From: an uncultured Gammaproteobacteria bacterium | GTDB taxonomy: Bacteria; Patescibacteriota; Patescibacteriia; JACPHY01 | Direction of reading: 5' to 3' | Assembly: GCA_964585225.1 (NCBI GenBank) | Contig: CAZPCZ010000002.1 | Coordinates: 1 to 59,418, forward strand | Length of the DNA: 59,418 bases | Shown here: positions 15,248 through 58,188 of the stretch, piece after piece | Position numbering within the stretch: the first letter of the stretch is position 1 | Layout: each line of letters begins with the position of its first letter | Notes under the pieces: generated by a model | Seen by the model: the letters and a program-made list of their open reading frames with translations, nothing else | Told to the model about the DNA's origin: nothing | Databases searched by the model: none | Program-made: the position numbers and the translations under genes

Positions 15248-15277
15248 TCCGCCAGAGGCGGATCCGCCTTGGGTGGA
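15248..15277. repeat. 30-nt palindrome (SARGGSAFGG family), intergenic copy
   Basis: TCCGCCAGAGGCGGATCCGCCTTGGGTGGA; related copies at 7709-7738 and 42654-42683. Confidence 0.85.
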
Positions 15278-15305: not shown

Positions 15306-15377
15306 GCCCCCATAGCTCAATGGAAGAGCACCGGACTTCTAAGCCGTGAGATGTACGTTCGAATCGTACTGGGGGCA
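15306..15377 (+). tRNA. tRNA-Arg(TCT), atypical anticodon stem, no encoded CCA
   Basis: Acceptor GCCCCCA/TGGGGGC, D-arm GCTC/GAGC, T-arm GTACG-TTCGAAT-CGTAC, loop CT-TCT-AA; only 3 of 5 anticodon-stem pairs. Confidence 0.75.
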
Positions 15378-15421
15378 CGGGCGATGGCAGGCGGGGAACG
15401 ACGACGCAAGATAGTGCGCGT

Positions 15422-16157: not shown

Positions 16158-16234
16158 GCCCCGGTAGCTCAACTGGATAGAGCGGCGGCGTTCTAAGCCG
16201 ACGGCTGGAGGTTCGATCCCCTCCCGGGGCACCA
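16158..16234 (+). tRNA. tRNA-Arg(TCT)
   Basis: GCCCCGG/CCGGGGC acceptor, anticodon TCT, TTCGATC T-loop, encoded CCA. Confidence 0.9.
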
Positions 16235-16379: not shown

Positions 16380-16871
16380 ATGACTTGGGCCTACATTGCT
16401 GGATTCTTTGATGGAGAAGGGAGTCTGTCCCGTAACGGTAATGGCTTCCGTGTCACTATTCCGCAAACAAATGTCGAGGTCCTCTGTACCATTCAACGAT
16501 TTGCTGGATACGGGAACGTCATTCACGTAACGAAACGACAACGCCATTGGAAAGAAAGTTGGATATACGCCGTCGCCAAGCAGGAAGAGGTGCTCCACTT
16601 TCTCCACAGAATCGGACCGTATCTCGTGGTCAAACGTAATCTGGTGAAGGCGGCACTGCCGGGCATTGCCCAAATGGTTGCTCAATACCGCCACGAGATG
16701 GTGCGTCGCAAACAACAATTCCGTACCGCAGTTTCGCTCCGGAAACGTGGATGGACATACCGCGATATTGGAAGGCGTCTGGGGATGGATTGGAGTTGGA
16801 CACGCCGGATCATCATGAAGGCTCCTACGAACCCGGACGGAACCACTACGGTGGGCGTAGCTCAATGGTAG
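16380..16871 (+). CDS. LAGLIDADG homing endonuclease with C-terminal HTH
   Basis: WAYIAGFFDGEGS motif; C-terminal RKRGWTYRDIGRRLGMDWSWTRRII; 3' end overlaps tRNA-His. An upstream TTG at 16341 is in frame. Confidence 0.9.
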   Translation: MTWAYIAGFFDGEGSLSRNGNGFRVTIPQTNVEVLCTIQRFAGYGNVIHVTKRQRHWKESWIYAVAKQEEVLHFLHRIGPYLVVKRNLVKAALPGIAQMVAQYRHEMVRRKQQFRTAVSLRKRGWTYRDIGRRLGMDWSWTRRIIMKAPTNPDGTTTVGVAQW

Positions 16872-19493: not shown

Positions 19494-19494
19494 A

Positions 19495-19590
19495 ATGGTT
19501 TCATTGTCTCATGGTTTCATTGTTCGATCAACCACGGCACCACGCCCAAAAACAATGAAGCAATGGAACAATGAAGCAATGGAACAATGG
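19495..19590. repeat. Octamer-array inverted-repeat element filling the intergenic space
   Basis: CATGGTTT/CATTGTCT arm versus (AACAATGA AGCAATGG)n arm; the last unit supplies the ATG of the next gene. Confidence 0.85.
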
Positions 19591-20402
19591 TCGTCATCGT
19601 CCTCCCCACCCACAACGAGGCCGCGATCATCCGAGCGAACCTCGAACGCCTCCTCGCGTTCCTGTCCCAGGGTACCGCTCCCACCGATTTCAACGATCGT
19701 GGAAAAGGGTGGGATCGTCCGTCTACCGATCAATGGCGCGTTATCATCGCAGATAACGCCTCGACGGATGCCACACGGGCGATCGTGCGCGAGGTCGCGG
19801 CACGCGAGTCTTCTGTCGAGCTCCTCGAGATTCCCGAAGTCGGAAAAGGCGGCGCGGTGCTCGCAGCGTGGCAGAAAGCCGCTGGTCAAATGTCAAATGT
19901 CAAATGTCAAATGTCGCCGGTGTTCGTTTTCATGGACGCCGACCTGGCGACGGACCTCGCGGCGCTCCCCGCCCTCATCTCCGCCATCCGCAACGGCCCG
20001 CCTTCGCGAAACGCTCCGGCGAGGGAACCTGCCGACATCGCCGTCGGCTCACGCTACCTCCCCGGGAGCCGCACCGAGCGCGGTAGCCTCCGACGGCTCA
20101 CCTCGTGGTGCTACCGCCTACTCCTGCGATTGCTCTTCAGTCTCCACGTTTCTGATCCTCCGTGCGGATTTAAGGCGGTGAACGAGCGGGTGGTGCGGGA
20201 GATCGCGCCGCTCGTACGCGACCGGCAATGGTTTTTCGACACCGAGCTCCTCATCCGCGCGCAGGCAGCGGGCATGCACATCGCGGAGGTCCCGGTGACG
20301 TGGCACGAGCCGCGTCGTGACCGCTCATTCGGAAAGGTCCTCCGCATCACGTGGAGCGACCTTCTGGCGATGTGGCGGCTCCGACGTGAGCTCCGCGCGT
20401 AA
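19587..20402 (+). CDS. GT2 glycosyltransferase (dolichyl-phosphate glucosyltransferase-like) with in-frame inserts
   Basis: VIVLPTHNEA, IIADNASTD, GKGGAV, FMDADLA, VGSRY, DPPCGFKA, WFFDTELL; inserts at 19679-19714, 19885-19915 (GTCAAAT x4), 19997-20027. Confidence 0.9.
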   Translation: MVVIVLPTHNEAAIIRANLERLLAFLSQGTAPTDFNDRGKGWDRPSTDQWRVIIADNASTDATRAIVREVAARESSVELLEIPEVGKGGAVLAAWQKAAGQMSNVKCQMSPVFVFMDADLATDLAALPALISAIRNGPPSRNAPAREPADIAVGSRYLPGSRTERGSLRRLTSWCYRLLLRLLFSLHVSDPPCGFKAVNERVVREIAPLVRDRQWFFDTELLIRAQAAGMHIAEVPVTWHEPRRDRSFGKVLRITWSDLLAMWRLRRELRA

Positions 20403-21232: not shown

Positions 21233-23821
21233 ATGGCGGATCAGGACGAACGGAAGACCATGCGCGTCACCATCGTCATCCCCACGTACAACGAACGCGA
21301 GAATCTGCGACCGCTCATCGAGCGGATCGCGGCATTGCCCACTCCGTACGACGTCCTCATTGTCGACGATAACTCTCCGGATGGTACCGGTGATCTTGCA
21401 GAGGAGCTCGCGCGTCACCCCCTCCCGCTCCCCCTCAAAACGAGGGGGAGGGTCCGCGTCCTTCGCCGTGAGCGCAAAGAGGGCCTCGGGGCCGCGTACG
21501 TCGCGGGATTCCATGAGGCGTTGACGCAGGGGGCGGAGGTCATCGTCCAGATGGATGCGGACGGCTCACATGATCCGAGCGAGCTCCTGGGGATGATCGA
21601 GGCGCTCTCCACGAGAACGAAGACGAATCCACGAATGGACACGAATCTACGAAATATTCGTGACATTGGTGTTCATTCGCGAATTCGTGCTCCCGTGGAT
21701 CTCGTCATTGGTTCTCGCCGCGTCCCCGGCGGGCGCATCGTCGGTTGGGGCCTGCACCGCCGCCTCGCGAGCTGGATGGCGCAAGTCCTCGCCCGCGTCC
21801 TGCTCGGCTTCCGCGCCCGCGATATCACGAGCGGGTTCCGGGTGTGGCGCGCAGCGGCGCTCCGAGTGGCGCTCGACTACCCTCCCCCTCAACTCCCTCT
21901 CCCGAGGGGAGAGGGAGAAAAGAGAAGAGAACATCTCGCATCTGGCTATGCGTTCCAAGAGGAACTCCTCTACCGGGCAGAGCAGCTCGGGCTCCGCGTT
22001 GCCGAGCACCCGATCACCTTCCGCGACCGCGAGCGCGGTCGCTCGAAACTTGGGATCCGTGACATCCTCGGGTTCTTCCGATCGCTCGCGCGCCTGTGGT
22101 GGTCCGATCGCGAGCGCCGCTTCGCGGTGTGGCTCGGCGTGAGTCTTGTAGTCCTCACGAGCCTCCCGTACCTCTACGGCTGGCTCCGCACGCCACCCGG
22201 CCACGTGTACACCGGCGTCCACGCGCTCGCGTCCGGCGACATGGCCGTGTACGGCTCGTACATCGAGCAGGTCCGCGATGGTCGGTGGCTGTTCGTGGAT
22301 CTCTTCACCTCCGAATGGCCGCAGCGCGGACTCCTCAATATCTTCTGGCTCCCGGTTGGCCTCCTCGCGCGCGTCGCCCACCTCCCGACCATCCTCACCT
22401 TCCATCTCGCACGCGTGCTCCTCATCATCCCGTTCGTGCTGTTCCTCGCCCGGTTCGTCGCTGCGTTTCTCCGCACGCCGATCGCGGGGTTCCCGCTCCG
22501 TACCGTGCACCGGATTGCACTCCTCTTCCTCGCGTTCTCCTCGGGCCTCGGCCCGCTCGTCGCAAACGCGATTCTGCCGCTCTCGAACGCACGCTGGCGC
22601 ACCGGCTATGACTTCTGGCCCATGGACCTCTGGGTACCGGAGTCCAACACGTTCCTCACGCTCTTCCAATCCCCTCACTTCATTGCGTCACTCTGGCTCC
22701 TCCTCGCGATCATCCTCGCAACTCTACGTTTTGCCGAGCAGAGACAAGCGGGGTCGGCACATGATACGAGATCCTTCGCTTCACTCAGGATGACACAGCG
22801 GTGGGGTCGCTCCATCTTCGCTGGTATCGCCGCGCTCGCACTTTTCCAATTCCACCCATTCTACGTCCCAACCGTCGCGGTGCTGCTCGCCGCGTGGACA
22901 GTCGTCGAGTCGATCGTCGCTCGTCGCGTTCGCTGGGACCTCGTCGGCCACGGCGCAATCGTCGGCATCCTCAGCGCCCCGTCCGTGCTCTCCCACCTCT
23001 GGCTCGTCCAGACGGATCCGATCACGAGCGCGCGCGCGAGCCAGAACCTCCTCTTCACGACCGACTGGTGGCTCGTCGCGCTGAGCTACGGCTTCCTCGT
23101 CCCGCTCGCTGCAATCGGAATCGCACGGCTCTTTCGTGGACGAACGATCGAGGGACGGCTGCTCCTTGTCTGGCTCGTCGCGACCATCGTCCTCATGTAC
23201 TCCCCGCTCACCTGGCAACGCCGGCTCGTCGAGGGGCTCCACGTCGTCGTCGTACTCATCGCAATCCTCGGGCTCTTCCCGTTCCTCGCGTGGCTGCGAG
23301 CGCGCGCCCCAAAATGGGTCCATCGGTACGCATGGGGCGTTACCACCGCGACCATCATCGCCATCCCGCTCTTCGGCGTCTCCACCGTCGTGAACCTCGT
23401 GCGGGATGTCGTCCTCTACACGATCCGATTCCCGCAGTCGATCCCGCGTCACTCGTTCTACTACCCCAGCGATGCGCTCGATGCGATGCGCTGGATCCGG
23501 GGACACGCGCCGCTCGGCGAAGCGACGTTCGCGGTCGGCATTGATGGGCATTTCCTTCCAATGTTCGCCGCGCGACAGACCGTCCTCGGGCATGGCGTCG
23601 AGACCGCGCACTTCGTCGAGAAGTACGAAACGAGCTACGCGCTCTCGCTCGGGCGACTCTCCCCAACCGAGGCACGCGCATTCCTCGAACGCGAGCGCGC
23701 ACGTTTCATCCTCGTCACGGATGCGAGCCGCGGCCTCTGGACCATTGATCCCGCCTCGCTCCCCGGCGCGACACTCGCGTACCGGAACGGCGGGGCGGAG
23801 ATGTATGAGTTGAGGCCGTAG
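21233..23821 (+). CDS. Fusion of GT2 polyprenol-phosphate mannosyltransferase-like domain and multi-pass GT-C-like membrane domain
   Basis: VIPTYNERENL, VDDNSPDGTG, QMDADGSH, GYAFQEEL, then ~12 TM segments; in-frame inserts at ~21417-21454, 21610-21690, 21880-21916, 22768-22795. Start may be 21260. Confidence 0.85.
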   Translation: MADQDERKTMRVTIVIPTYNERENLRPLIERIAALPTPYDVLIVDDNSPDGTGDLAEELARHPLPLPLKTRGRVRVLRRERKEGLGAAYVAGFHEALTQGAEVIVQMDADGSHDPSELLGMIEALSTRTKTNPRMDTNLRNIRDIGVHSRIRAPVDLVIGSRRVPGGRIVGWGLHRRLASWMAQVLARVLLGFRARDITSGFRVWRAAALRVALDYPPPQLPLPRGEGEKRREHLASGYAFQEELLYRAEQLGLRVAEHPITFRDRERGRSKLGIRDILGFFRSLARLWWSDRERRFAVWLGVSLVVLTSLPYLYGWLRTPPGHVYTGVHALASGDMAVYGSYIEQVRDGRWLFVDLFTSEWPQRGLLNIFWLPVGLLARVAHLPTILTFHLARVLLIIPFVLFLARFVAAFLRTPIAGFPLRTVHRIALLFLAFSSGLGPLVANAILPLSNARWRTGYDFWPMDLWVPESNTFLTLFQSPHFIASLWLLLAIILATLRFAEQRQAGSAHDTRSFASLRMTQRWGRSIFAGIAALALFQFHPFYVPTVAVLLAAWTVVESIVARRVRWDLVGHGAIVGILSAPSVLSHLWLVQTDPITSARASQNLLFTTDWWLVALSYGFLVPLAAIGIARLFRGRTIEGRLLLVWLVATIVLMYSPLTWQRRLVEGLHVVVVLIAILGLFPFLAWLRARAPKWVHRYAWGVTTATIIAIPLFGVSTVVNLVRDVVLYTIRFPQSIPRHSFYYPSDALDAMRWIRGHAPLGEATFAVGIDGHFLPMFAARQTVLGHGVETAHFVEKYETSYALSLGRLSPTEARAFLERERARFILVTDASRGLWTIDPASLPGATLAYRNGGAEMYELRP

Positions 23822-29162: not shown

Positions 29163-29558
29163 TTAATCCGCTGCCGCCGTGACGAGCGATCGGATGACGA
29201 ACTGCGCGATTGCGAACGACGTGAGGATGATCGCGAGCCCGATGATGCCGGAAAAGATGAGCTTCTTCGCCTTCTCCACCTTCTCCTCGTTCCCGGCTGC
29301 GGTCATCCAAATGAAGCCGCCAGCGAGGATGATGACGACCGCGACGATGCCGAGGAGGCCCATCGCGACGTTAATGATCCGCGCGACGACCTCGCGGACA
29401 TCACGGGTCGAGAGGCCGGTCGCGGTCCCGTAGTTGATGCCGGTGTCGATCCCACCGGCGAACGCCGTGAGTGGGAGGATGAGCGAGAGCCCAACCGTTG
29501 CGGCCGTCGCGGCGACCTTCCGCGCGAGGCGCGCTCGGTCCGTGTGCGTGGTGCGCAT
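29163..29558 (-). CDS. CPR-type pilin
   Basis: LAGGFIWMTAAGNEEKVEKAKKLIFSGIIG. Confidence 0.85.
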   Translation of the reverse strand: MRTTHTDRARLARKVAATAATVGLSLILPLTAFAGGIDTGINYGTATGLSTRDVREVVARIINVAMGLLGIVAVVIILAGGFIWMTAAGNEEKVEKAKKLIFSGIIGLAIILTSFAIAQFVIRSLVTAAAD

Positions 29559-29609
29559 AGTGATGAGATGAGACTTGAGTCGTGAGTTATGAGTGAAGGT
29601 TGTGGATAA

Positions 29610-30038
29610 TTACGAGCTCGTGAGCGCGCCGATGACGAAATTCACGATAGCGTAGGCGGCAAACGTGATCGCGATGCCTAAGACTGCCCACACCATCGTA
29701 TCCTTCCCCTTCTGTATCTTCTCAGCTGCGCCACCCGACGTCAACCACGTGAATCCACCGTAGATGAACATGAGGAGCGCAAGAGACCCGAGGATACCGA
29801 AGAACGCCCGGAGCACGTTCCCGAGGATCGTGGGGATATCGGCGGATGGGAGCGGGTTGTCGAGGCCGGTGCCGGTCCCACCACCTCCGCCGCTTCCGCT
29901 CGGACAGGGAGGGAGCGGTGTCACCGGACCGTGTGCTGGTTGACCCGGACAGTGGAATGCCACTGCGCCGAACGGTACCGCGAGCACCACCGCAAGCGCG
30001 AAGAGGAGGATCGTCGTGCGGATGTAGTACGGACGCAT
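29610..30038 (-). CDS. CPR-type pilin
   Basis: LDNPL...YGGFTWLTSGGAAEKIQKGKDTMVWAVLG. Confidence 0.85.
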   Translation of the reverse strand: MRPYYIRTTILLFALAVVLAVPFGAVAFHCPGQPAHGPVTPLPPCPSGSGGGGGTGTGLDNPLPSADIPTILGNVLRAFFGILGSLALLMFIYGGFTWLTSGGAAEKIQKGKDTMVWAVLGIAITFAAYAIVNFVIGALTSS

Positions 30039-30052: not shown

Positions 30053-30595
30053 TTACGGACGGCCACCTCGCGGCGCGTTGCACCTGGTCTCCGTCCACGT
30101 ACCACCGAGCACTTCGGCAACCCCACACCGGTTCACGCGGCCGGTGAGCGAGGCGAGGAGCGTGTTCACGATCACCCAGGCTCCAAAGATAATGATAATC
30201 CCAACGACCGCCGCGACCAAGGTCTTCTTCCCCTTCTCAATCCGCTCGGCGGTCCCGGCGGCCGTGAGCCACCAGAACCCGCCGACTGCGAACATAAGGA
30301 GTGCGAGCGATCCTGTGATCCAGAAGATGAACCGCGACGCCTCGACCGCGAGCTTCGTGAAGTCCTCGAGCTTGCAGTCCCCACAGCACGCGCAGTTCGG
30401 GTTCGTGATGAACGTCCGCTGCTGATTCCGACACTCGGTGCTCGGCACGTTGTTCACGCACTGCTGGGCGAGCGCTGGCGTTGGAAGTAAAAAGTAGGAA
30501 GTAAGAAGGAAGAAGACGGGGAGCATGATGATCCCCCACCCCCTCCAGCTCCCCCTCCCCCGGGAGGGGGAAAAAACGTAGTTCTGCATTCTCAC
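30053..30595 (-). CDS. CPR-type pilin, Cys-rich variant
   Basis: CACCGDCKLEDF...VGGFWWLTAAGTAERIEKGKKTLVAAVVG; repeat-derived N-terminus. Confidence 0.8.
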   Translation of the reverse strand: MRMQNYVFSPSRGRGSWRGWGIIMLPVFFLLTSYFLLPTPALAQQCVNNVPSTECRNQQRTFITNPNCACCGDCKLEDFTKLAVEASRFIFWITGSLALLMFAVGGFWWLTAAGTAERIEKGKKTLVAAVVGIIIIFGAWVIVNTLLASLTGRVNRCGVAEVLGGTWTETRCNAPRGGRP

Positions 30596-35438: not shown

Positions 35439-35496
35439 AGAAAATCCCACCTCGACGGTGGGATTTTCTATTCCTTATTCCTGATTCCTCATTCCC
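35439..35496 (-). terminator. Terminator hairpin plus heptamer array
   Basis: AGAAAATCCCACC-tcgac-GGTGGGATTTTCT, then TATTCCT TATTCCT GATTCCT CATTCCC. Confidence 0.65.
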
Positions 35497-41964: not shown

Positions 41965-43149
41965 TCACTGTACATCACGACGGGGGCCCGAGAACAGTCG
42001 AGGGGCGGGGAGCCATCGCACGTCGTCAATGGATGCCGCATTCGTAAGGAGCATAACAAGGCGATCGACGCCGAGGGCCATGCCGGCCGTCGGTGGCATG
42101 CGGCGGAGGGCGGCGATGAAATCCATGTCGATCGGGTAGACCGGCTTCCCGAGTTTCCGGCGGAGGCGCTGATCGGCCCGGAATCGCGCGAGTTGTTCAT
42201 CTGCGTCGGTGAGCTCTGAAAATCCGTTCGCGATCTCGAGACCACCGATGTAGAGCTCGACGCGCTCAGCGTAGCGCGGGTCTTTGGATTTCTTCCGCGC
42301 AAGCGCAGCCATCTGCACGGGCCAGTCAAGGAGGAATGTCGGACGCGTTCTCCCAAGTTTCGGCTCCACCTCCGTGAGGTGGATCTTGAAAAAGAGATCG
42401 TCGAAGGTATCGTCCGTCGTCACCGTATATCCCTTCGCGCGACATACTCTCGCCATCGCCGCGCGTGCCCCGCGAAAGTGGCCAACCCCCGGGGTTGGCC
42501 ACTTTGTGGACCCGAGGAGGTGATCGAGGTCGAGCTTCGCGTACCGCTTCCACGCCTGACGCATGGTAAGCCGCTCCCAGGGCGTGGTGAGGTTGATGGA
42601 TTGGCCTCGGTAGGAAATCTTGAATTTTGAATTTTGAATTTGTTTGGAATTTGTCCGCCAGAGGCGGATCCGCCTTTGGCGGAGAATTTGGTTCTTGGTC
42701 ATTCCGCGATGCTCGTCGGGGAGGATAGCGTCGAGGAGATGGGAGAGCAACGTCTCACAGTCAACCATGAGCGCCCGGTAGTCCGCATCACGGTGGTACC
42801 ATTCGAGCATCGTGAACTCGGGATTGTGCGTGCCGCCCCAGGGCTCACCGTCACGAAAGACCGGACCGATTTCAAAAAGACCTGGCGCCTGACACCTGAC
42901 ACCTGACACCTGACCAAGGCACTTCTTCAGTGAAAACTCCGGACTCATGCGGAGAAAGGCATCATGCGCACGTCCGCGCTCGTCATGGACCGTCGTCCGC
43001 AGGGGTTCAAGGTACGGCTCCTGCGATGGATGTGCGAGCATCACCGGAGTCTCAACCTCTAAAAAATTCCGCGCCCAAAAAAACTCACGGATCCCTCGCA
43101 GGATCCGGTGCCGCTCCATGAGTCGATCCTGTTGCGTACGATCCGTCAT
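41965..43149 (-). CDS. epmA: EF-P lysine aminoacylase EpmA/GenX with three in-frame repeat inserts
   Basis: FLEVETP, LRMSPEFSLK, FRDGE..THNPEFTMLEWY, ERVELYIGGLEIANGFSEL, GMALGVDRL; no anticodon-binding domain. Inserts at 42475-42505, 42617-42703, 42888-42915. Confidence 0.88.
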   Translation of the reverse strand: MTDRTQQDRLMERHRILRGIREFFWARNFLEVETPVMLAHPSQEPYLEPLRTTVHDERGRAHDAFLRMSPEFSLKKCLGQVSGVRCQAPGLFEIGPVFRDGEPWGGTHNPEFTMLEWYHRDADYRALMVDCETLLSHLLDAILPDEHRGMTKNQILRQRRIRLWRTNSKQIQNSKFKISYRGQSINLTTPWERLTMRQAWKRYAKLDLDHLLGSTKWPTPGVGHFRGARAAMARVCRAKGYTVTTDDTFDDLFFKIHLTEVEPKLGRTRPTFLLDWPVQMAALARKKSKDPRYAERVELYIGGLEIANGFSELTDADEQLARFRADQRLRRKLGKPVYPIDMDFIAALRRMPPTAGMALGVDRLVMLLTNAASIDDVRWLPAPRLFSGPRRDVQ

Positions 43150-43409
43150 TCCGGGATGTACGGCATCAACGCCATGACCCGTGCGCGTTTGATGGCCGTC
43201 TTCAGCTTCCGCTGGTGCGCGGTGCACACGCCGGAGCGGCGCGTCGGGGCAATCTTCTTGTACGAGGACACGAACCGCCCGAGGAGCTGCACATCCTTGT
43301 AGTCCGGCTCCTCGATGTGGTGGATGCAGAAGAAGCAGTGCCGCTGCTCGGGGATGATGCGGCTCTTGCGTTTCGTACGTGATGGCGGCGCATTCGGAGG
43401 GAGTGACAT
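43146..43409 (-). CDS. rpsR: 30S ribosomal protein S18 (Zn-binding type)
   Basis: CFFC...DYKDV...KIAPTRRSGVCTAHQRKLKTAIKRAR. Confidence 0.96.
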   Translation of the reverse strand: MSLPPNAPPSRTKRKSRIIPEQRHCFFCIHHIEEPDYKDVQLLGRFVSSYKKIAPTRRSGVCTAHQRKLKTAIKRARVMALMPYIPE

Positions 43410-43411
43410 GG

Positions 43412-43487
43412 GAGTTATGAGTGATGAGTTATGAGTGATGAGTTGATCGCCCTTCCCCCTTCACTCGTCCCTCTTCCCTCTTCACTT
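43412..43487. repeat. Heptamer inverted-repeat element between ssb and rpsR
   Basis: (GAGTGAT/GAGTTAT)n-GATCG-(TTCCCTC/TTCACTC)n; near copy at 43941-44015. Confidence 0.85.
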
Positions 43488-43940
43488 CTAAAACGGTATC
43501 TCCTCCACTTTGAGCTCGTCCTTTGCGACCATCTCCGCTGGCATCTCCTCCTCGGCCGCATTCGGCGGTGCTGCGGGCTGTCGCTTGTTGAACTGCTGGG
43601 TCCCGCCGCCGGGCGCGCGGTCGAGCATGATCATGTTCTCCGCGACGATCTCCGTGCGGTTGCGCTTCGTGCCATCCTGCGCGGTCCACTCGCGGGTCTT
43701 CATGCGACCCTCGACGTACACCTTGCGCCCACGCCCGAGGTACTGCGCGCAAATCTCTGCGAGCCGACCGAACGCGACGACGTTGTGGAACTCCGCCTCA
43801 TCGTGACGCACCCCCTGCGGATCCACGAACGCACGGTTCGTCGCAACACCGAACGTGCAGACGTTCGTGCCGCCCGCGGTCGTGCGCGATTCTGGATCTC
43901 GCGTGAGGTTCCCGATGACCATGACCTTATTGAGCGTCAT
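43488..43940 (-). CDS. ssb: Single-stranded DNA-binding protein
   Basis: LNKVMVIGNLTRDPE...C-terminal EEIPF. Confidence 0.97.
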   Translation of the reverse strand: MTLNKVMVIGNLTRDPESRTTAGGTNVCTFGVATNRAFVDPQGVRHDEAEFHNVVAFGRLAEICAQYLGRGRKVYVEGRMKTREWTAQDGTKRNRTEIVAENMIMLDRAPGGGTQQFNKRQPAAPPNAAEEEMPAEMVAKDELKVEEIPF

Positions 43941-44015
43941 AGAAGTGATGAGTGATGAGTTACGAGTGATGAGTTGATCGTTCCCTCTTCACTCTTCCCT
44001 CTTCACTCTTCCCTT
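43941..44015. repeat. Heptamer inverted-repeat element between rpsF and ssb
   Basis: GAGTGATGAGTTACGAGTGATGAGTTGATCG-TTCCCTCTTCACTCTTCCCTCTTCACTC. Confidence 0.85.
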
Positions 44016-44017
44016 GC

Positions 44018-44482
44018 TTAGACCATTTCCTTCCCCAAAATCTCCTCGAGCTTCTTGTCGAGGTCTTCGATCGCCGATGGCTCGGCGACGGGCGCGGTGA
44101 CCGCGGCGGCACGTTCGGCGACCGCTGCCTTCGCCTCTCGCTCGCGCGCCTTCGCGCGCTCCATGACCTCGATCTGCGCGCCGACCGCGCGTGCCTTCTC
44201 GCTCTTCACGGTCACGAGGCACCGGAGGACGAACGGGAGGAGCCGGAACTCGCGTTCAATCTCCTTCACCGCGGGTCCGGACGCGGTGAACTCGACGAGC
44301 GCGTACTCGCCCGCCTGGTTCCGCTTGACGGGGTACGCGAGTCGCTGCCGCGCAACCTCACGCGTCGTCACGACGGATCCACCGTTCGCCTGAATGACCT
44401 TCACCGCCTGTTCGCGGATTGCGGTGCGATCGGCCTCGCGATCCTGCAGTGGCGTGAGGAAGAGGAGTTCGTAGGATTGCAT
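44018..44482 (-). CDS. rpsF: 30S ribosomal protein S6
   Basis: MQSYELLFL...RLAYPVK...VLRCLV; rpsF-ssb-rpsR order. Confidence 0.93.
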   Translation of the reverse strand: MQSYELLFLTPLQDREADRTAIREQAVKVIQANGGSVVTTREVARQRLAYPVKRNQAGEYALVEFTASGPAVKEIEREFRLLPFVLRCLVTVKSEKARAVGAQIEVMERAKAREREAKAAVAERAAAVTAPVAEPSAIEDLDKKLEEILGKEMV

Positions 44483-46798: not shown

Positions 46799-46953
46799 GC
46801 ACCTGCAGGATACCACTGCGCGGTACAGCTCCCTTGACCCCTCCACCGATGCGCGCCACACTGGAGATGCAGCGCGTACCCATCGGTACGCTGTTTGTTT
46901 CCTCAGGTTCACCCTGAGCGAAGCGAAGGGTCTCTCACGCCGGAAAGTAGCTG

Positions 46954-47058
46954 TTGAGAAATGAGAACGTGGTTATGGAGAATGGAAACGAGAAAGTGGA
47001 ATCCTTCATCTCCAATTTCCATTACCATTTTCTATCTTCCATACAGCCAATTTCTCAA
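46954..47058. repeat. Heptamer inverted-repeat element upstream of hppA
   Basis: TTGAGAAAT/ATTTCTCAA ends; ATGGAGA ATGGAAA versus TCTCCAA TTTCCAT TTTCTAT. Confidence 0.75.
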
Positions 47059-47110
47059 ATTCGTAAGATCCTTCGTCAGTCTTCGGCTTCCTCAGGATAA
47101 ACTCGTATCT

Positions 47111-52044: not shown

Positions 52045-53337
52045 ATGCAAACTACGACAACATCGCTCCCAAAATCATCCATCAGCATCGACGTCGAGCT
52101 CGCGGTTGAGGAACTCCAGCCGTACCTTCGCAAAGCTGCGGAGGCGCTGTCGCGTGAGCATCCGATGAAGGGGTTCCGCCCGGGCAAAGTGCCGTACGAC
52201 GTCGCGGTTCAACGGTATGGCGCTGTGGCACTCTACGAGGAGGCGGCGGACCAGGCGGTGCGCGACGCGTACGTCCGCGCGGTGCGCGAGCAGAACCTGA
52301 AGACCGTCGGCTCCCCGCGCATCGAGGTGAAGACGCTCGCGCCGGACAATCCCATGAAGTTCACCGCCACGGTTGCAGTACTCCCGGCCGTCGTGCTGCC
52401 GGACCTCAGCACGATCTCGGTCACGCGAAGAGCCGTGCGTATCGCGCCGAACGACGTCGACCGTGCGCTCGAGGACCTCCGCAAGTTGCAGCCGACCGAG
52501 GCGCTCGTCGATCGTCCAGCCACCGCGACGGATAAGGTCGTCGTCGACCTCGACCTCTCGCGGGAGAACGTGCCGCTCGAGGGCGGACAAGCGCGTGGCC
52601 ATCAGATCGAGCTCACGGAATCGTACTACCTCCCGAAAGTGAAAGAGGAACTCATTGGGATGTCGCGGGGCGAGACGAAATCATTCCCGCTCGCGTTTCC
52701 CGCCGACCACTACCAGAAGCACCTCGCGGGGACGACGGTCGATTGCTCAGTCACGGTGAAGGACGTGTACAGCGTCGAACTCCCGCCCATCGACGATGCG
52801 TTCGCGAAACGACTCGGGCAGGGGGACCTCGCGGCGCTCCGGGTCCTCATCGAACGGAACCTCACCGCAGAATCAGAGAAGAAGGCGGCTGATGCGGAGG
52901 AGATCGAGATGCTCGACGCGATCATGGATCGCGCGACCATTGCCGACCTCCCAGAGATCCTCATCACCGGCGAGGCGCGACGGATGATCGACGAGCTCGA
53001 GCGTGGCGTCGGAAGCCAAGGACTCACGTTCGACGAGTACCTGACGAAGCTCAAGAAGACGCGCGATGAAATCCTCCTCGACTTCGCACCGGATGCCGTG
53101 CGTCGCGTGAAGGTCGCACTCGTGACACGGGCCATCGCCGAAGCGAACGTGGAGGCGACCGCGGTCACAGACGACGAAGTCAAATCTGAAGTCCAGCAGC
53201 AGCTCGCGCGGTACGAGGACACGCCGGAATTCCGCCAACGCATGCAGTCCGAGGAAGCGCGGGACTACGTGGCCTCAATGCTCCGCAACCGCAAAGTCAT
53301 CGCGTGGCTGCGGGGGCAGGTGAAGTGGCGAAACTAG
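52045..53337 (+). CDS. tig: Trigger factor
   Basis: MKGFRPGKVP signature, FKBP-like middle domain, C-terminal domain. Confidence 0.95.
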   Translation: MQTTTTSLPKSSISIDVELAVEELQPYLRKAAEALSREHPMKGFRPGKVPYDVAVQRYGAVALYEEAADQAVRDAYVRAVREQNLKTVGSPRIEVKTLAPDNPMKFTATVAVLPAVVLPDLSTISVTRRAVRIAPNDVDRALEDLRKLQPTEALVDRPATATDKVVVDLDLSRENVPLEGGQARGHQIELTESYYLPKVKEELIGMSRGETKSFPLAFPADHYQKHLAGTTVDCSVTVKDVYSVELPPIDDAFAKRLGQGDLAALRVLIERNLTAESEKKAADAEEIEMLDAIMDRATIADLPEILITGEARRMIDELERGVGSQGLTFDEYLTKLKKTRDEILLDFAPDAVRRVKVALVTRAIAEANVEATAVTDDEVKSEVQQQLARYEDTPEFRQRMQSEEARDYVASMLRNRKVIAWLRGQVKWRN

Positions 53338-53458
53338 AAACTCGAAATTCGAATTTCGAAATCCGAAACAAGCACGAATGTTCAAATGAACCAAAGAACG
53401 TTTTGAGTTTTCGCCTTTTGAATTTGTTTCGGATTTCGAGTTTCGTGCTTCGGATTTC
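53329..53458. repeat. Heptamer inverted-repeat element overlapping the tig stop
   Basis: CGAAACT AGAAACT CGAAATT CGAATTT CGAAATC ... TTTCGGA TTTCGAG TTTCGTG CTTCGGA; same family as the lspA insert. Confidence 0.9.
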
Positions 53459-53467
53459 TTTCCACGC

Positions 53468-54304
53468 ATGCCAATCGGTGCTCACGTTTCCATCGCGGGC
53501 GGTATCTGGAACGCACCCGAACGCGCGGCGGCACTCGGGTGCGAGTGTTTCCAGTTGTTCACGCGCTCGCCGCAGGGAGGCGGCGCGCCGCCACTTACCG
53601 ACGAGGGCGTGAAGAAGTTCCGCGCAGCGTGCGAGACGCACGGCCAGCAGCTCTGGGTCGTGCACACGCCGTACTACATCAACCTCGCATCGAAAGAGGA
53701 ACGTACGCGCGCGAATTCCGCGCGCGTCATCCGTGACGAACTCGAACGCGCGTCGCTCATCGGTGCGACGTACGTCATGACGCACCTCGGGAGCGCGAAG
53801 GACGTCGGGCAATCGCAAGGCGTCACATACGCTGCCCAAGGACTCCGCAAAGCGCTCGATGGCTACACCGGCTCCGCCCAATTCCTCATCGAAATCTCCG
53901 CCGGCGCCGGTTCCGTCATCGGGGGGACGTTCGAGGAAGTCGCGCAGCTCCTCACCATGATCGACCGCGAGGACGTGGGGATCTGCTTCGACACCCAGCA
54001 CGCCTTCGGTTCCGGCTACGATCTCCGTACGCCCGAGGCGGTCGCGGAAACCATGCAGAAGTTCGACGCGACGATCGGTCTCCACCGCCTCAGAATGTCC
54101 CACGTGAACGACTCGAAAGTGGAACTCGGCGCGCACAAGGATCGCCACGAGCACATCGGCCACGGCCACATCGGCGCCGACGGCATCCGCGCCTTTGTCC
54201 AAAGTCGAGCTTTGGACAACCTCCCGCTCATCATCGAAACCGAGGACGGCCCCGAACGCGCGGAGGACGTGCGGCTCCTCAAGGAGTTTCGTGGAAACAT
54301 TTGA
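53468..54304 (+). CDS. nfo: Endonuclease IV
   Basis: IGAHVSIAGG, HTPYYINLAS, ICFDTQHAF, HVNDSK, DRHEHIG, IIET. Confidence 0.95.
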   Translation: MPIGAHVSIAGGIWNAPERAAALGCECFQLFTRSPQGGGAPPLTDEGVKKFRAACETHGQQLWVVHTPYYINLASKEERTRANSARVIRDELERASLIGATYVMTHLGSAKDVGQSQGVTYAAQGLRKALDGYTGSAQFLIEISAGAGSVIGGTFEEVAQLLTMIDREDVGICFDTQHAFGSGYDLRTPEAVAETMQKFDATIGLHRLRMSHVNDSKVELGAHKDRHEHIGHGHIGADGIRAFVQSRALDNLPLIIETEDGPERAEDVRLLKEFRGNI

Positions 54305-54349
54305 ACCCAGTGGGAGTCCTGTGCTATAGTCACGATGTCCTCATCGTGT

Positions 54350-54622
54350 ATGCCCGCCACACTCCGCCGTGAACGAGTCACACCCCGTCGTCGCGCACTC
54401 CGGCGTTCTCCATCCGGTCATCGTCTCCTCACGCGTGTGACACACGATGGTCACACCCGTACCTTCGCGATCTCTCGGCGTGCCTACGAGAATCTCATTG
54501 AGGATCTCGAGGCGCTGTCGAGTCCGCGGTACCTCGCGTCCATCCGGCGTGCGCGCCGTGAAGCCGCACGTGGAGAGACGCACACGCTCGCAGAGGTCAA
54601 GCGTCGGTTTGGAATCCAATAG
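54350..54622 (+). CDS. Putative antitoxin (Phd/YefM-like C-terminus)
   Basis: YENLIEDLEALSSPRYLASIRRARREAARGETHTLAEV; directly upstream of RelE. Confidence 0.7.
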   Translation: MPATLRRERVTPRRRALRRSPSGHRLLTRVTHDGHTRTFAISRRAYENLIEDLEALSSPRYLASIRRARREAARGETHTLAEVKRRFGIQ

Positions 54623-54628
54623 TGCGGT

Positions 54629-54880
54629 ATGCACGTGGTGCTGACGCCGAGTGCGGGGCGCGACCTCGACGCACTCGATCCGCAGGTACGTCATCGCGTA
54701 CTTCGAAAGCTTGGGTGGTTCGTCCGATCGGATGACCCACTCATTTTCGCTGAACCACTCTCCCATTCGAAGCTGGGGACGTGGCGGTTCCGTATCGGAG
54801 ATTGGCGAGTGACATTCGATGTAGACGTGGATCGTATTGTTGTGCTCCGCATCGGCAACCGCCGCGACATCTACTGCTAA
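54629..54880 (+). CDS. RelE/ParE family toxin
   Basis: VVLTPSAGRDLDALD, WRFRIGDWRVTF, VLRIGNRRDIY. Confidence 0.9.
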   Translation: MHVVLTPSAGRDLDALDPQVRHRVLRKLGWFVRSDDPLIFAEPLSHSKLGTWRFRIGDWRVTFDVDVDRIVVLRIGNRRDIYC

Positions 54881-54925: not shown

Positions 54926-55843
54926 ATGGTTCGTAATCTCATCATCATCGGTGGCGGTCCGGCGGCGCTCACGGCGGCGATCTACGCGGGACGCGCGTCA
55001 TTGCGGCCGCTCGTGTTCGCGGGCGCGATGCCGGGTGGGCAGCTCATGCTGACCTCCGAGGTCGAGAACTACCCGGGGTTCGACGACCCCATCATGGGAC
55101 CGGAGCTCATGGAGCGGTGGCGCAAGCAGGCGCAGCGGTACGGCGCGGAGTTCGTGGATGAGGACGTCACCGCGGTGGACTTCTCCAAACAACCGTTCCG
55201 CGTCACCGTTGGCGCACAAACGTACGAGACGAAATCGGTGATCGTCGCGACCGGTGCGACCGCGAAGTGGCTCGGGATCCCCAACGAGCAGCGCCTCATC
55301 GGGAAGGGCGTCCACACGTGCGCGCAGTGCGACGGATTCGCGTACACCGGCAAACACGTCGTGGTGGTCGGTGGTGGCGATACCGCGATGGAGGAAACGA
55401 CGACGCTCGCGAAGATCGCCACAAAGGTCACGGTCGTCCACCGCCGGTCGGAGCTCCGCGCCTCAAAGATCATGGCGGATCGCGCGCTCGCCAACCCCAA
55501 AGTTGAGTTCATTTGGAACACGGCGGTTGAGGAGGTGCTCGGAGACACGCGCACGACCGGCGTAAAACTCAAGAACCTCGAAACGAACGCGGTGCGCGAG
55601 TTCCCATGTGACGGCCTCTTCGTCGCCATCGGCTACACCCCCGCGACCGCATTCCTCAAGGGCCAGCTCGAACTCAACGACAAAGGATACGTTATCGTCC
55701 ACGATCACACACGAACATCTGTGGAGGGCGTCTTCGCCGCCGGCGATGTCGAGGACTTCCGGTACCGGCAGGCGGTGACGGCCGCAGGCGCGGGTTGCGC
55801 TGCGGCCATTGATGCGGAACGATGGTTAGCCACGAATTCCTAA
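54926..55843 (+). CDS. trxB: Thioredoxin reductase
   Basis: GGGPAALTAA, VENYPGF, CAQCDG, GGGDTAME, VFAAGDV. Confidence 0.96.
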   Translation: MVRNLIIIGGGPAALTAAIYAGRASLRPLVFAGAMPGGQLMLTSEVENYPGFDDPIMGPELMERWRKQAQRYGAEFVDEDVTAVDFSKQPFRVTVGAQTYETKSVIVATGATAKWLGIPNEQRLIGKGVHTCAQCDGFAYTGKHVVVVGGGDTAMEETTTLAKIATKVTVVHRRSELRASKIMADRALANPKVEFIWNTAVEEVLGDTRTTGVKLKNLETNAVREFPCDGLFVAIGYTPATAFLKGQLELNDKGYVIVHDHTRTSVEGVFAAGDVEDFRYRQAVTAAGAGCAAAIDAERWLATNS

Positions 55844-56326
55844 TGACGAATTTCTAATTTCTAATCAAATCCCAATGCCCAATGATCAAATGACCAAAAC
55901 GAAGTTCGATCTCGAGGAGCGAACAGCGAGATTCGGCGAAGAGGTCATCCGCTTTGCGAAGAAGATACCAGAGAACGCGGTCACGAGACCACTCATTTCA
56001 CAGTGTGTCCGAGCTGGGACGAGCATCGGCGCGAACTACTGCGAGGCCGACGATGCGGAATCGCGAAAGGATTTCGTCCACAAGATTGGCATCTGCAAGA
56101 AGGAGGCGCGCGAGTGCAAGCACTGGCTCCGCATGATCGTCGTGGCAGTCCCGGAACTCACTCATGGGGCGCGGGTGCTCTGGCAAGAGGCGAAGGAGCT
56201 CAACCTCATTTTCAACGCGATCACTCGCTCGAGTCGCGACCACGAACGGTAGGAGCGCTCAATCGTCATTGGTGCTTGGGCATTACGTCATTGATTAGAA
56301 ATTAGGAATTAGAAATTAGGAATTCG
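55833..56326 (+). mobile_element. Candidate element: four-helix-bundle gene bracketed by inverted heptamer arrays
   Basis: Left arm CGAATTCCTAATGACGAATTTCTAATTTCTAATCAA... (55833-55895) is an imperfect inverse of right arm ...TTGATTAGAAATTAGGAATTAGAAATTAGGAATTCG (56263-56326). Confidence 0.6.
55875..56252 (+). CDS. Four helix bundle protein (23S-IVS/Avd-like family)
   Basis: FDLEERTARF, QCVRAGTSIGANYCEAD.AESRKDF.HK..I..KE..E..HWL. Confidence 0.92.
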   Translation: MPNDQMTKTKFDLEERTARFGEEVIRFAKKIPENAVTRPLISQCVRAGTSIGANYCEADDAESRKDFVHKIGICKKEARECKHWLRMIVVAVPELTHGARVLWQEAKELNLIFNAITRSSRDHER

Positions 56327-56336: not shown

Positions 56337-56504
56337 ATGCGCACTCTCTTCTCCCTGGTCACACTCAGTGGCGTCTGGCTCTTCGCCTCGCCCTTCGTCC
56401 TGGGTTATCTTGGTGTGGCGCGCGGCAACGCGCTCCTCCTCGGCCTCATCCTCACGATCATTGGGATCATGGGGATCGCCGGGACCGTTCAACCGAAACG
56501 GTAG
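56337..56504 (+). CDS. Small SPW-repeat membrane protein
   Basis: Manual translation MRTLFSLVTLSGVWLFASPFVLGYLGVARGNALLLGLILTIIGIMGIAGTVQPKR*. Confidence 0.7.
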   Translation: MRTLFSLVTLSGVWLFASPFVLGYLGVARGNALLLGLILTIIGIMGIAGTVQPKR

Positions 56505-56859: not shown

Positions 56860-57267
56860 ATGTCAACGCAGGTACTCTTGGACACCAACATCGTCATCGA
56901 GCATCTACGGGACGATCCGATGGTCGCCCCGTTCTTCGATGCGATCGGCCGCGGCACGCTGGTGCCCGCAGTATCGACCATCACGGAGTTCGAACTGCTC
57001 CGGTATCCCGACCTCATCGACACCCACGAAATTGTGATCCTCCGCCTCCTCAACGACTTCCGAATACATACGGTTGGCAGGAGGACGGCACAAATTGCCG
57101 CACTCCTCTACCGACGGTACCGCGGAAAAACCAACGACCTTCTCATCGCTGCGACAGCGATTGAGCACAGCGTCCCGCTCCTCACGAGGAACATTCGGGA
57201 CTTTCGGAAGATTCAAGAGCTCAAGCTCCTCGCGGAACCACCTATTAATCCTACGGAGCACGTCTAA
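56860..57267 (+). CDS. PIN domain (VapC) toxin
   Basis: VLLDTNIVI, STITEFEL, NDLLIAATA, LLTRNIRDF. Confidence 0.92.
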   Translation: MSTQVLLDTNIVIEHLRDDPMVAPFFDAIGRGTLVPAVSTITEFELLRYPDLIDTHEIVILRLLNDFRIHTVGRRTAQIAALLYRRYRGKTNDLLIAATAIEHSVPLLTRNIRDFRKIQELKLLAEPPINPTEHV

Positions 57268-57298
57268 TTGAAATCCGTAAAATCTCACCGTAATGGAC

Positions 57299-57330
57299 AG
57301 TAAAAGTGGCTCAAAGGAGCCACTTTTACT
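57299..57330. terminator. Bidirectional intrinsic terminator
   Basis: AGTAAAAGTGGCTC-aaag-GAGCCACTTTTACT perfect 14-bp stem. Confidence 0.85.
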
Positions 57331-57339
57331 TATTGGTGC

Positions 57340-57368
57340 TTGACAGAATTGACAGAGTATGCTATGGT
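57340..57368 (+). promoter_or_regulatory. sigma70-like promoter with extended -10
   Basis: TTGACA-17-TATGGT preceded by TGC. Confidence 0.7.
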
Positions 57369-57374
57369 GGTTTT

Positions 57375-57760
57375 GTTGATACTCGTTCGTGCCACACGCT
57401 CTTCACCAACCCACGGAGGAGAGAGCCCGAGGTGGCCGGGTCATGCGCCACCGCACCACGTGTTTCATGGTGCCAATTTCAGAAAATCCTGATCCCCGCC
57501 GAACTCTCTCCCCACAAGGAGGGAGTTTGGTCGTTCTCATCGTATCTCCACCCGGGTTCCAGGGGGCCGCGCCTTCGTTCGCAAGAATGATTGCCTCTGG
57601 AGCCCGGGTTGGGATGCGAAGCCAAAGAGTGACGCGGTCTGCACCACAGCGTCGTCCTCCCACCCGAGCGCCGGATCCTCAAGTGGGATTCGGTGCTCAG
57701 GTGGGAGTCGCACCTTCAACCCACAACTGCCCGAGGCAAGGCCTCGGGGGAAAGGAGCGC
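57375..57760 (+). ncRNA. Putative long structured leader RNA
   Basis: About 390 nt with long hairpins at ~57500-57530, 57548-57613, 57660-57702, 57730-57750. Confidence 0.35.
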
Positions 57761-57762: not shown

Positions 57763-58188
57763 ATGCATCTGCTCAATGCGTTCTCCCTCAACATGCTCGG
57801 CGGATTTCCGGCCGTCGTGCGCGTGGAGGAGATTTCGCTCGAAAAGGCGCGGCACCTCGCGCGGGGCATCTGCTCCGCGTGCGGCGGAACGCCCGATCCC
57901 CAACACCGCGGCCTGTCCATCGAGGACGCGGGGGCATGGGGCGGGCAGAGCGGCTGCGGTGATCTCCACCGCTTCGAGCCGCTCGCCTCCGCCGTCGGCC
58001 ACACCGACACGGCCGCGGTGTTCGCGGACGTACTCGGCGTGCCGGTGCCAGCCGCGCGAGTGACCGTGTCGCTGAAGCAAGGCGACGCGGCGCTCGTAGG
58101 CCAGTACCGCGGGCCGCGTCTCCCGGAGGGTGCGACACGCCTTCCGGAGGAGGCCACGATCCAGTGGCTCCTCGTCTCGGTCGAGTGA
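57763..58188 (+). CDS. DUF1874 / STIV B116-like protein with Cys/His-rich insertion
   Basis: MHLLNAFSLNML, SAVGHTDTAAVFADVLGV, GDAALVGQY.GPRLPEGATRLP; insert ICSACGG...CGDLH; SD AAAGGAG. Confidence 0.8.
   Translation: MHLLNAFSLNMLGGFPAVVRVEEISLEKARHLARGICSACGGTPDPQHRGLSIEDAGAWGGQSGCGDLHRFEPLASAVGHTDTAAVFADVLGVPVPAARVTVSLKQGDAALVGQYRGPRLPEGATRLPEEATIQWLLVSVE

Follow-up and report, generated by a model that had tools for sequence, protein, structure and literature searches.

What is the small gene that fills the spacer between trxB and a gene for an SPW-repeat membrane protein, and what are the inverted arrays of 7-nt repeats that enclose it? We addressed this question in a stretch of 59,418 nt (63.9% GC) of an uncultured bacterium, here called the window, whose nearest named relatives are Candidatus Uhrbacteria (trxB 89% identical). 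The feature is probably a complete, promoter-less mobile stem-loop cassette of the intervening sequence (IVS) type, which carries a four-helix-bundle (4HB) gene and has gene-less hairpins as non-autonomous derivatives. The locus consists of the following parts.

54926 to 55843, plus strand: trxB, thioredoxin-disulfide reductase, the upstream host gene (Pfam Pyr_redox_2, E 1.4e-57)
55833 to 55894, plus strand: left arm, nine 7-nt units (inverted repeat; tandem-repeat rows at 55832-55865; sequence)
55875 to 56252, plus strand: 4HB gene (PF05635, E 1.5e-14; TIGR02436, E 5.6e-20; PDB 2RLD, E 1e-12)
56265 to 56326, plus strand: right arm, nine 7-nt units, CATTGG-type inner and ATTAGAA/ATTAGGA outer units, pairing with the left arm in the predicted RNA fold
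56337 to 56504, plus strand: SPW-repeat membrane protein gene, 55 aa, the downstream host gene (Pfam SPW, E 9e-7)

The 4HB gene lies in the loop of an imperfect hairpin of about 60 bp, whose arms are built of tandem 7-nt units (in relatives also 9-nt units). The repeat finder places the inverted arms at 55833-55894 and 56265-56326, with 62 nt each, 370 nt between them and a complementarity of 73%, which rises to 89% in the outer 36 nt. With the register set to start at 55834, nine units can be counted in each arm. Those of the left arm are GAATTCC TAATGAC GAATTTC TAATTTC TAATCAA ATCCCAA TGCCCAA TGATCAA ATGACCA, with outer units of the CTAAT/CGAAT type at 55834-55868 and inner units of the CCAATG type at 55869-55896; the right arm is the complement series (TCATTGG ... 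ATTAGAA ATTAGGA). Within the left arm lie the stop codon of trxB (TAA, 55841-55843) and the two ATGs at which the 4HB gene may start; the protein has 125 aa from the first ATG (55875) or 120 aa from the ATG at 55890, the start used in public gene calls. The SPW gene starts 10 nt past the right arm.

The 4HB gene is the sole open reading frame (ORF) of the cassette and has no other significant Pfam or NCBIfam match. Its product matched four-helix-bundle models only, namely PF05635 (23S rRNA-intervening sequence protein), TIGR02436 (four helix bundle protein) and two weak, sub-threshold NCBIfam "hypothetical protein" subfamilies; the closest solved relative is PDB 2RLD, with five chains. The GC content at third codon positions (GC3) of the gene is 0.74, near host codon usage. 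No recognisable transposase or recombinase is encoded by the cassette according to Pfam and NCBIfam searches, the gene had no PADLOC match among defence-system models, and the arms and hairpins were unmatched in Rfam, both at gathering thresholds and at E values up to 0.5. An earlier description made from the letters of the window alone (the sequence-only reading) had placed imperfect inverted heptamer arms of about 65 nt around the gene, with the trxB stop and the gene's ATG inside the left arm, and had named a protein family that is kin to IVS proteins and to Avd of diversity-generating retroelements (DGRs) and free of catalytic transposase motifs; the arm length and unit counts, the codon positions and the model matches given above bear this description out.

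The comparison of related genomes showed this spacer in filled, empty and replaced states. It is empty in L104 (trxB 89% identical to that of the window; spacer of 14 nt) and in L107 (70%; 30 nt). L085 (trxB 83% identical) holds the same cassette with a 4HB protein 88% identical, and L106 (85%) holds a different one, whose 4HB protein is 41% identical and whose arm units are CTCAAAG/TCCAAAG. In the trxB tree, the window pairs with the empty L104, and L085 pairs with carriers of the other cassette; therefore, at least three gain, loss or replacement events are required at this spacer. The TrxB C-terminus reads ...ERWLATNS* in the window versus ...ERWLATQ* at the empty site in L104: the left arm takes the place of the final codon or codons of trxB (the last two in the window) and provides the stop codon. 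The cassette is a discrete insertion in a short spacer between co-directional host genes. Four further contigs of the same strain were identical throughout the cassette and displayed no heptamer copy-number variation among them. The tig-nfo spacer is variable as well: the window has a CGAAAT-type hairpin there, L105 another hairpin, and L104 a GIY-YIG gene enclosed by an inverted repeat of its own.

The 4HB protein has more than 7,995 relatives, of which the top matches share 72-88% identity and are spread over many Patescibacteria classes as well as Planctomycetota, Bacteroidota, Omnitrophota and WOR-3. We surveyed 80 loci from species-representative genomes and scored 76 genes for arms, with the threshold set at the 99th percentile of same-geometry controls within the same loci. 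An inverted repeat above this threshold surrounded 72 of the 76 genes, in several phyla. The motif CTAATT was enriched 86-fold in the 70 nt upstream of family genes, and AATTAG 59-fold in the 80 nt downstream. Within the arms of CTAAT-type cassettes of the 80 loci, the core-to-core spacing was 7 nt in 139 cases, 9 nt in 140 and 8 nt in 4; the word "heptamer" describes only half of this clade, the 9-nt spacing being as common. All 11 extra, divergent paralogues found in the same loci were flanked by inverted arrays of other units (for example, AATTTTA, TATCAAT, CATAGNN, AAATCCCA and ACTAAAT). These 11 genes lie within 5 kb of the 80 primary genes (in L075, L027, L009, L011, L021, L049 and others); some paralogues are mutually adjacent (L077), and one has a premature stop (L062, 78 aa).

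The same arrangement was found on plasmids. Among plasmid records with a 4HB relative, 24 of 30 were cyanobacterial, and the eight copies examined from plasmids of cultured bacteria all had arms, each with its own units: GTCGGAG in Nostoc punctiforme, TTCAAAA in Nostoc flagelliforme, AGTAAAA in Anabaena cylindrica, TTTTAGA in Gloeocapsa, GATTGCA in Nostoc C057, GATGAAG in Chlorohelix, AACAGTN in Chondrinema and GGAAAGN / CTCTCCG in Treponema. On two whole plasmids, which add up to 69 kb, none of the six period-7 arrays is more than about 2.4 kb away from the sole 4HB gene, and three adjoin it directly. Several plasmid cassettes of cultured bacteria are located inside operons (L109, L111, L112 and L114), that is, between cas2 and cas1 in Anabaena cylindrica, between helicase and N-6 DNA methylase genes in Chlorohelix, between DUF1156 and a HEPN gene in Gloeocapsa, and between RND adaptor and permease genes in Chondrinema. 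No 4HB relative was found in viral contigs, so phage carriage is unsupported. Stop codons in all three frames were present in 53 of 76 CTAAT-type left arms versus 24% of shuffles; as a general reason for the period of 7, this property was rejected, being absent from other unit types (CTCAAAG, CGAAATC).

The limits of the copied unit were seen in two loci. In L069, a Planctomycetales contig, the full cassette is accompanied at a distance of 3.7 kb by a second copy, 97-100% identical to it, whose similarity stops precisely at the tips of the arms, between unrelated flanks. This copy lacks gene nucleotides ~1-150 and 252-333, and both deletions are at short direct repeats (microhomologies), GACGACGG and CCGGAA. 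In L027, two cassettes 1.1 kb apart are similar only from arm tip to arm tip. Gene-less CTAAT hairpins with cassette-type outer and inner units were present at no fewer than nine loci, in spacers between co-directional genes (L002, L012, L013, L026, L062, L063, L075 with five, L076 and others), and some of them still contain the ATG. Taken together, the cassette behaves as a single unit, arm tip to arm tip, whether it is passed on, lost, exchanged for another or copied, and its copies decay through microhomology deletions to gene-less hairpins. Multiple copies of the trxB-SPW cassette itself were not seen inside the 59-kb window. The multi-copy cassettes of Nostoc flagelliforme were uninformative for defining termini; those copies lie within larger duplicated segments.

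The sequence-only reading had proposed a cassette of gene plus arms with empty derivatives resembling MITEs (miniature inverted-repeat transposable elements), and for the family this holds. Family genes are enriched for arms (72/76 relatives, 11/11 paralogues and 8/8 plasmid copies), filled and empty alleles exist at trxB-SPW (together with a replaced one), the tig-nfo spacer has three different occupants, and gene-less arms match those around genes, as in the CTAAT hairpins beside CTAAT cassettes, the L069 derivative and the CGAAAC/GTTTCGA units of L159 and L202.

Sharp ends of this kind would also be produced by ordinary MITE-like non-autonomous DNA transposons that are moved by a transposase encoded elsewhere, with the 4HB gene as mere cargo. 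The arms look like terminal inverted repeats in which sub-terminal motifs recur, the copies in L069 and L027 end sharply at their tips, and gene-less copies far outnumber gene-bearing ones, a 4HB gene being present in only 4 of 120 metagenomic loci with the array (GTTTCGA)x3. However, the arm units differ widely between lineages (CTAATTT, CGAATGA, CTCAAAG, TATCAAT, GTCGGAG, TTCAAAA and others), and despite this variety only 4HB genes were ever found inside, in at least six phyla. A dN/dS of 0.04 in every lineage is unexpected for a passenger gene, no transposase was seen beside the cassettes in annotated contexts, and no target-site duplication is visible at the examined junctions. We consider this explanation quite unlikely.

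A second route to such copies would be recombination between arms, in which a resident gene-less hairpin takes up a circular molecule of arm plus gene through a single crossover and releases it by the reverse reaction. The expected product is the layout left arm, gene, near-identical second left arm, right arm, and this was found in L010, L034 and L061 (3 of 74 loci). The identical arms of the two L027 cassettes, whose genes diverge, are consistent with frequent arm-to-arm exchange, and one spacer holds two different cassettes in related genomes. In the usual layout, however, the gene is inside the hairpin and not beside it; the replacement at the trxB site cannot be due to arm homology, the arm units of the two cassettes there being different; and no circles were observed. 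This route gains some support from the three loci but is on the whole unlikely.

The conservation of its parts also supports the mobile cassette reading. Between the window and L085, the dN/dS of the 4HB gene was 0.043 versus 0.099 for trxB; the protein is under strong purifying selection. The left arms of the same pair are 91% identical, with synonymous sites of the flanking genes near saturation. Among 53 CTAAT-type cassettes, fourfold degenerate sites are saturated (identity 0.29), and arm identity is 0.66-0.67 compared with 0.46 for control flanks and 0.53 for composition-matched shuffles. The GC3 of the gene tracks host GC (slope 1.36, r 0.85), whereas the GC of the arms responds little to it (slope 0.45); for the window, the values are 34% GC in the arms, a gene GC3 of 74% and 64% GC in the host. 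In L027, the left arms are identical at 45 of 45 positions, and the proportion of synonymous differences (pS) between the genes is 0.86. The arm identities, the GC comparison and the L027 data thus show that the arms are constrained, or homogenised, in sequence.

Strong conservation of the 4HB protein would equally be expected if the gene were immobile and of benefit to the host and its arms served in cis for expression or processing, with gene-less arrays arising in place by polymerase slippage that favours 7-nt units. In many bacterial genomes, no long simple repeat is commoner than the heptanucleotide, for which an origin by slippage has been put forward (PMC4679880, PMC4692102). The arrays of the window are of many different units, and five of them are direct only. 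No target-site duplication was visible at the junctions of the window versus L104, of L069 and of L027, where the repeat termini (AATT...) could mask a short one, and the exact proteins P0015 and P0020 were each found in a single genomic context, in more than 20 contigs. Against this explanation are the filled, empty and replaced states of one spacer among genomes with trxB at least 83% identical, the second L069 copy with unrelated flanks and identity that ends at the arm tips, the near-identity of arms across phyla with synonymous sites saturated, and the clustering of arrays at or near the 4HB gene on two whole plasmids. A stationary structure with slippage is accordingly improbable.

The context of the gene favours its expression by read-through. 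The upstream neighbour is co-directional with the 4HB gene in 73 of 77 loci and the downstream neighbour in 63 of 73, and the median gap from the upstream stop to the 4HB ATG is 47 nt, approximately the arm length. No promoter or terminator was predicted between trxB and the SPW gene. In the predicted minimum-energy fold of the RNA (-189.4 kcal/mol, z -4.5), the arms pair.

Several observations weigh against a mobile cassette of the IVS type. Besides the lack of visible target-site duplications and the single contexts of P0015 and P0020, no recombinase, transposase or reverse transcriptase was called beside the cassette in Pfam-labelled contexts. Arm mismatches read on the sense strand comprised 202 G.U and 245 A.C, with no excess of wobble pairs, and there was no element-specific covariation, since left arms pair as well with the right arms of other loci (median 50) as with their own (49.5). 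The complementarity of the arms therefore mirrors a shared clade consensus, and these two null results argue against a purely RNA-structural constraint. RNase III processing and the activity of the 4HB protein are extrapolated from relatives only. Where hairpins lie in frame inside genes, obligatory RNase III cleavage would be harmful. Finally, the CTAAT/ATTAG units of the trxB-SPW cassette occur in none of the other arrays of the window, which have at least eight other unit types. Because the repeat units differ, the trxB-SPW copy is not the source of those arrays, which would derive from other cassette lineages; the proposal of the sequence-only reading that this gene is their parent falls with this result.

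The same reading had named an RNA-mediated spread as one possibility, for which the wobble-pair statistics (G.U 202 versus A.C 245) give no support. Such a route would have the excised stem-loop RNA reverse-transcribed by a reverse transcriptase supplied in trans, with the 4HB protein as an Avd-like cofactor, and the cDNA integrated. The 4HB protein shares its Pfam family with DGR Avd, a nucleic-acid-binding partner of reverse transcriptase (PMC10053308), the homologous rRNA IVS is freed as RNA by RNase III, and in about 95% of loci the cassette points the same way as host transcription. Opposed to this are the arms without wobble-pair bias or covariation, the labelled neighbourhoods without a reverse transcriptase and the viral contigs without a related protein. 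In Coxiella, moreover, RNase III cleaves inside the stem (PMC4990558), whereas the copies seen here are complete out to the arm tips. Copying through RNA is very unlikely.

For the promoter-less mobile cassette, the following mode of action can be proposed. The cassette would be transcribed by read-through from the host operon, and its arms would fold into a long stem within the read-through transcript. This stem may be a target of RNase III, in analogy to the IVSs of Coxiella and Leptospira; alternatively, ribosomes that terminate in the arm may open it. Either route would result in an expressed cassette and insulated neighbours. The 4HB protein is the sole product kept by every gene-bearing copy. 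It would be the element-encoded factor that acts on the repeat arms, by binding, by protection or, in analogy to Avd, by recruiting a host polymerase or recombination function. The gene-less hairpins would be non-autonomous derivatives of the 4HB-bearing cassette.

The closest known system is the 23S rRNA IVS of Coxiella and Leptospira, which encodes a protein (S23p, or 23S_rRNA_IVP) of the same family, PF05635. In both systems, the ORF lies in the loop of a stem formed by terminal inverted repeats. The Coxiella IVS has two to three tandem heptamers (GACAGAT) directly before its ORF and is cleaved in the stem by RNase III, and its heptamer copy number varies between strains (PMC4990558). As in Coxiella, tandem heptamers run into the start codon in the window, where there are nine units instead of two to three. 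Both systems have a sporadic distribution with horizontal transfer, and for the IVS an involvement of the ORF in mobility was put forward earlier; 23S_rRNA_IVP ORFs are also known from rRNA insertions of bacteria of the Candidate Phyla Radiation (CPR), that is, Patescibacteria (PMC11270868). The cassette of the window differs in its location between protein-coding genes rather than in helix 25 or 45 of 23S rRNA (the window contains no rRNA), in its longer arrays of nine units per arm, in a stem that is predicted, whereas RNase III excision is known for Coxiella, and in having gene-less derivatives, which share its arms and are found in spacers of mRNAs and even within ORFs. The cassette is homologous to the ORF-bearing 23S rRNA IVS and probably works alike, outside rRNA.

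The arms, in turn, resemble the heptanucleotide arrays of cyanobacteria (short tandemly repeated repetitive sequences, STRRs), Xanthomonas (GGGAATC) and Beggiatoaceae (TAACTGA), which are likewise tandem 7-nt units in intergenic, co-transcribed spacers. Xanthomonas has 70-75 arrays as convergent inverted pairs, and the heptamer arrays of Xanthomonas and Nostoc, inverted pairs included, have been described as unexplained (PMC4692102). Plasmid 4HB genes are mainly cyanobacterial, and those examined are flanked by such arrays; in the window, period 7 is enriched over other periods, and its arrays lie mostly in intergenic spacers. The published papers on heptamer arrays, however, make no connection to 4HB genes, and many of the arrays described there are direct only. 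The STRR units described by Mazel et al. in 1990 may be equivalent to the inner arm units CCCAATG / ACCAATG.

Other families of small repeats share single traits with the cassette. In REPIN/RAYT systems, which consist of repetitive extragenic palindromic (REP) sequences and their associated tyrosine transposase, a small gene is flanked by inverted copies of a short repeat that is also dispersed without the gene, and the copies without a gene fold into hairpins between genes. The catalytic motifs of RAYT, which is an HUH transposase, are known; the 4HB protein, in contrast, matches four-helix-bundle models and not HUH (Y1) transposases, and REPs are not tandem 7-nt arrays. The Correia elements of Neisseria and the enterobacterial repetitive intergenic consensus (ERIC) are short hairpin-forming repeats co-transcribed in operon spacers, the Correia hairpins being RNase III substrates, and Rickettsia palindromic elements are inserted in frame in ORFs, as are the arrays of the xerC/D-like and family 2 glycosyltransferase (GT2) genes of the window. 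These elements have one conserved sequence per genome and no associated gene, whereas here the units vary by element and a gene-bearing form exists. DGR Avd has the same fold and Pfam family as the 4HB protein; this small, basic oligomer of helical bundles can bind nucleic acid and acts as the partner of a polymerase (PMC10053308). Unlike in DGRs, no reverse transcriptase was called beside the cassette: the neighbours in the window (AP endonuclease, trxB, SPW, PIN and STIV_B116-like genes and unlabelled ORFs) include none, a template/variable repeat pair not having been searched for. Nor are Avd genes described as flanked by heptamer arrays. In the searchable full-text literature, outside which most subscription journals lie, no paper was found that links 4HB genes in general to inverted heptamer arms or gene-less derivatives.

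A broader interpretation, which we offer tentatively and which may well be wrong, is that 4HB "IVS proteins" and inverted 7-nt (or 9-nt) arrays form one widespread, unrecognised class of mobile elements. The 4HB oligomer, small and without the look of an enzyme, would be the sole element-encoded factor; it would recognise its own arms and have the hairpin copied by replication, repair or reverse transcription of the host. Were this so, one kind of element, with or without its gene, would underlie rRNA IVSs, the STRRs of cyanobacteria, the inverted Xanthomonas arrays of GGGAATC and the hairpins that lie in frame in Patescibacteria, and DGR Avd would be a domesticated or ancestral relative. Three puzzles are decades old: the role of the conserved ORF in rRNA intervening sequences, the rank of heptanucleotide repeats as the commonest long simple repeats of many bacteria, and the nature of the cyanobacterial and Xanthomonas heptamer arrays. 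The evidence ties them together, with genes of the 4HB family embedded in inverted heptamer arrays in every lineage examined. The questions become testable in culturable hosts such as Nostoc, Anabaena and Chondrinema and point to a mobile element whose single gene has no known catalytic motif. For annotation, the cassettes account for AT-rich hairpins that fill operon spacers and interrupt genes in frame in Patescibacteria.

The remainder of the window is rich in related arrays. Compared with local shuffles of the window, 13 period-7 arrays were observed versus 1.0 expected, and periods 5, 6, 8 and 9 yielded at most 4 each. The arrays and hairpins, none of them assigned to a strand, are as follows.

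7730 to 7840, no strand: gene-less heptamer hairpin, GAAATCC ... GTTTCGA x5 (dG -38.1, z -5.0)
14508 to 14622, no strand: heptamer hairpin, AGAATNA / CATCATT units, in frame in a xerC/D-like recombinase gene (z -3.1)
19475 to 19605, no strand: period-8 hairpin with CATTG / CAATG cores, filling an intergenic spacer (z -3.0)
19883 to 19917, no strand: direct array GTCAAAT x4.4 within a GT2 glycosyltransferase gene (tandem-repeat rows; Pfam)
21618 to 21693, no strand: hairpin of CGAAT-type units within a second GT2 gene (z -4.6; Pfam alignment breaks there)
29553 to 29626, no strand: direct array of GAGTGAT/GAGTTAT-type units, a unit family common to 43412 and 43944
30484 to 30561, no strand: GAAGTAA array then TCCCCC array, at the 5' end of a type IV secretion system (T4SS)-pilin-like gene
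35468 to 35495, no strand: direct array TATTCCT x4, beside a terminator-like hairpin
42591 to 42671, no strand: GAATTTT array adjoining the GGCGGATCCGCC palindrome
42880 to 42916, no strand: direct array ACCTGAC x5
43412 to 43486, no strand: array pair GAGTGAT... / CTTCCCT... in the ssb-rpsR spacer
43944 to 44014, no strand: second copy of the GAGTGAT.../CTTCCCT... array pair, in the rpsF-ssb spacer
46936 to 47092, no strand: heptamer hairpin, GGAGAAT / ATTTCCA units, nested in another inverted repeat (z -2.9)
53312 to 53470, no strand: gene-less heptamer hairpin filling the tig-nfo spacer, CGAAATN / GTTTCGN units (dG -48.7, z -2.9)

The sequence-only reading had listed 14 dispersed sites of the same design as the cassette. 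All 14 hold an array or a hairpin; the sameness of design stood only in part, with about nine hairpins and about five arrays that are direct only, a period of 8 at site 19495, and no CTAAT/ATTAG units. In the tig-nfo hairpin, the tig stop codon TAG lies inside the left arm, and its unit type (CGAAAC/GTTTCGA) flanks 4HB genes in L159 and L202. In the period-8 hairpin, the right arm holds the ATG of the next gene. Arrays lie in frame in three genes (the xerC/D-like recombinase and the two GT2 genes), and the Pfam domain alignment is interrupted at each; in the recombinase, the hairpin is positioned between the SAM-like domain and the catalytic domain. In the rpsF-ssb-rpsR operon (43146-44482, minus strand), a GAGTGAT... 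array followed by a CTTCCCT/CTTCACT... array occupies both spacers; the halves are poorly complementary, hence not good hairpins.

The outer inverted repeat around the hairpin at 46936-47092 is of the type that flanks the GIY-YIG gene in L104. In L104, which belongs to a related Uhrbacteria genome, the tig-nfo spacer contains a 98-aa GIY-YIG gene with its own inverted repeat (GTTTATCCTGAG..GAAGGATCTC, L104:3690-4050), and a gene-less copy of this repeat type fills the nfo-trxB spacer (L104:4880-5000). In the window, the GIY-YIG-type repeat lies at 46894-46940 / 47070-47102 (CCTCAGGATAAAC at 47090), with a heptamer hairpin at 46954-47040 inside it. The GIY-YIG gene with its inverted repeat looks like a second family of hairpin-flanked small-gene cassettes.

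Around the trxB-SPW locus, the nfo-trxB spacer of the window (54335-54880) contains two small overlapping ORFs of 95 and 83 aa, a suspected toxin-antitoxin pair that is missing from the L104 spacer. Downstream of the SPW gene are a PIN gene (56860-57267) and a STIV_B116-like gene (57763-58188). An AT-rich structured stretch at 57232-57396 (dG -48.8, z -3.5), downstream of the PIN gene and without a convincing ORF, includes a perfect 14-bp hairpin. The palindrome CCAAAGGCGGATCCGCCTCTGGCGGAG occurs three times in the window (7701-7746, 15257-15268 and 42648-42689), twice adjoining heptamer arrays and once just upstream of a tRNA-Arg gene (15306). Two tRNA-Arg(TCT) genes lie 850 nt apart (15306-15378 and 16158-16234) and are followed by tRNA-His at 16851.

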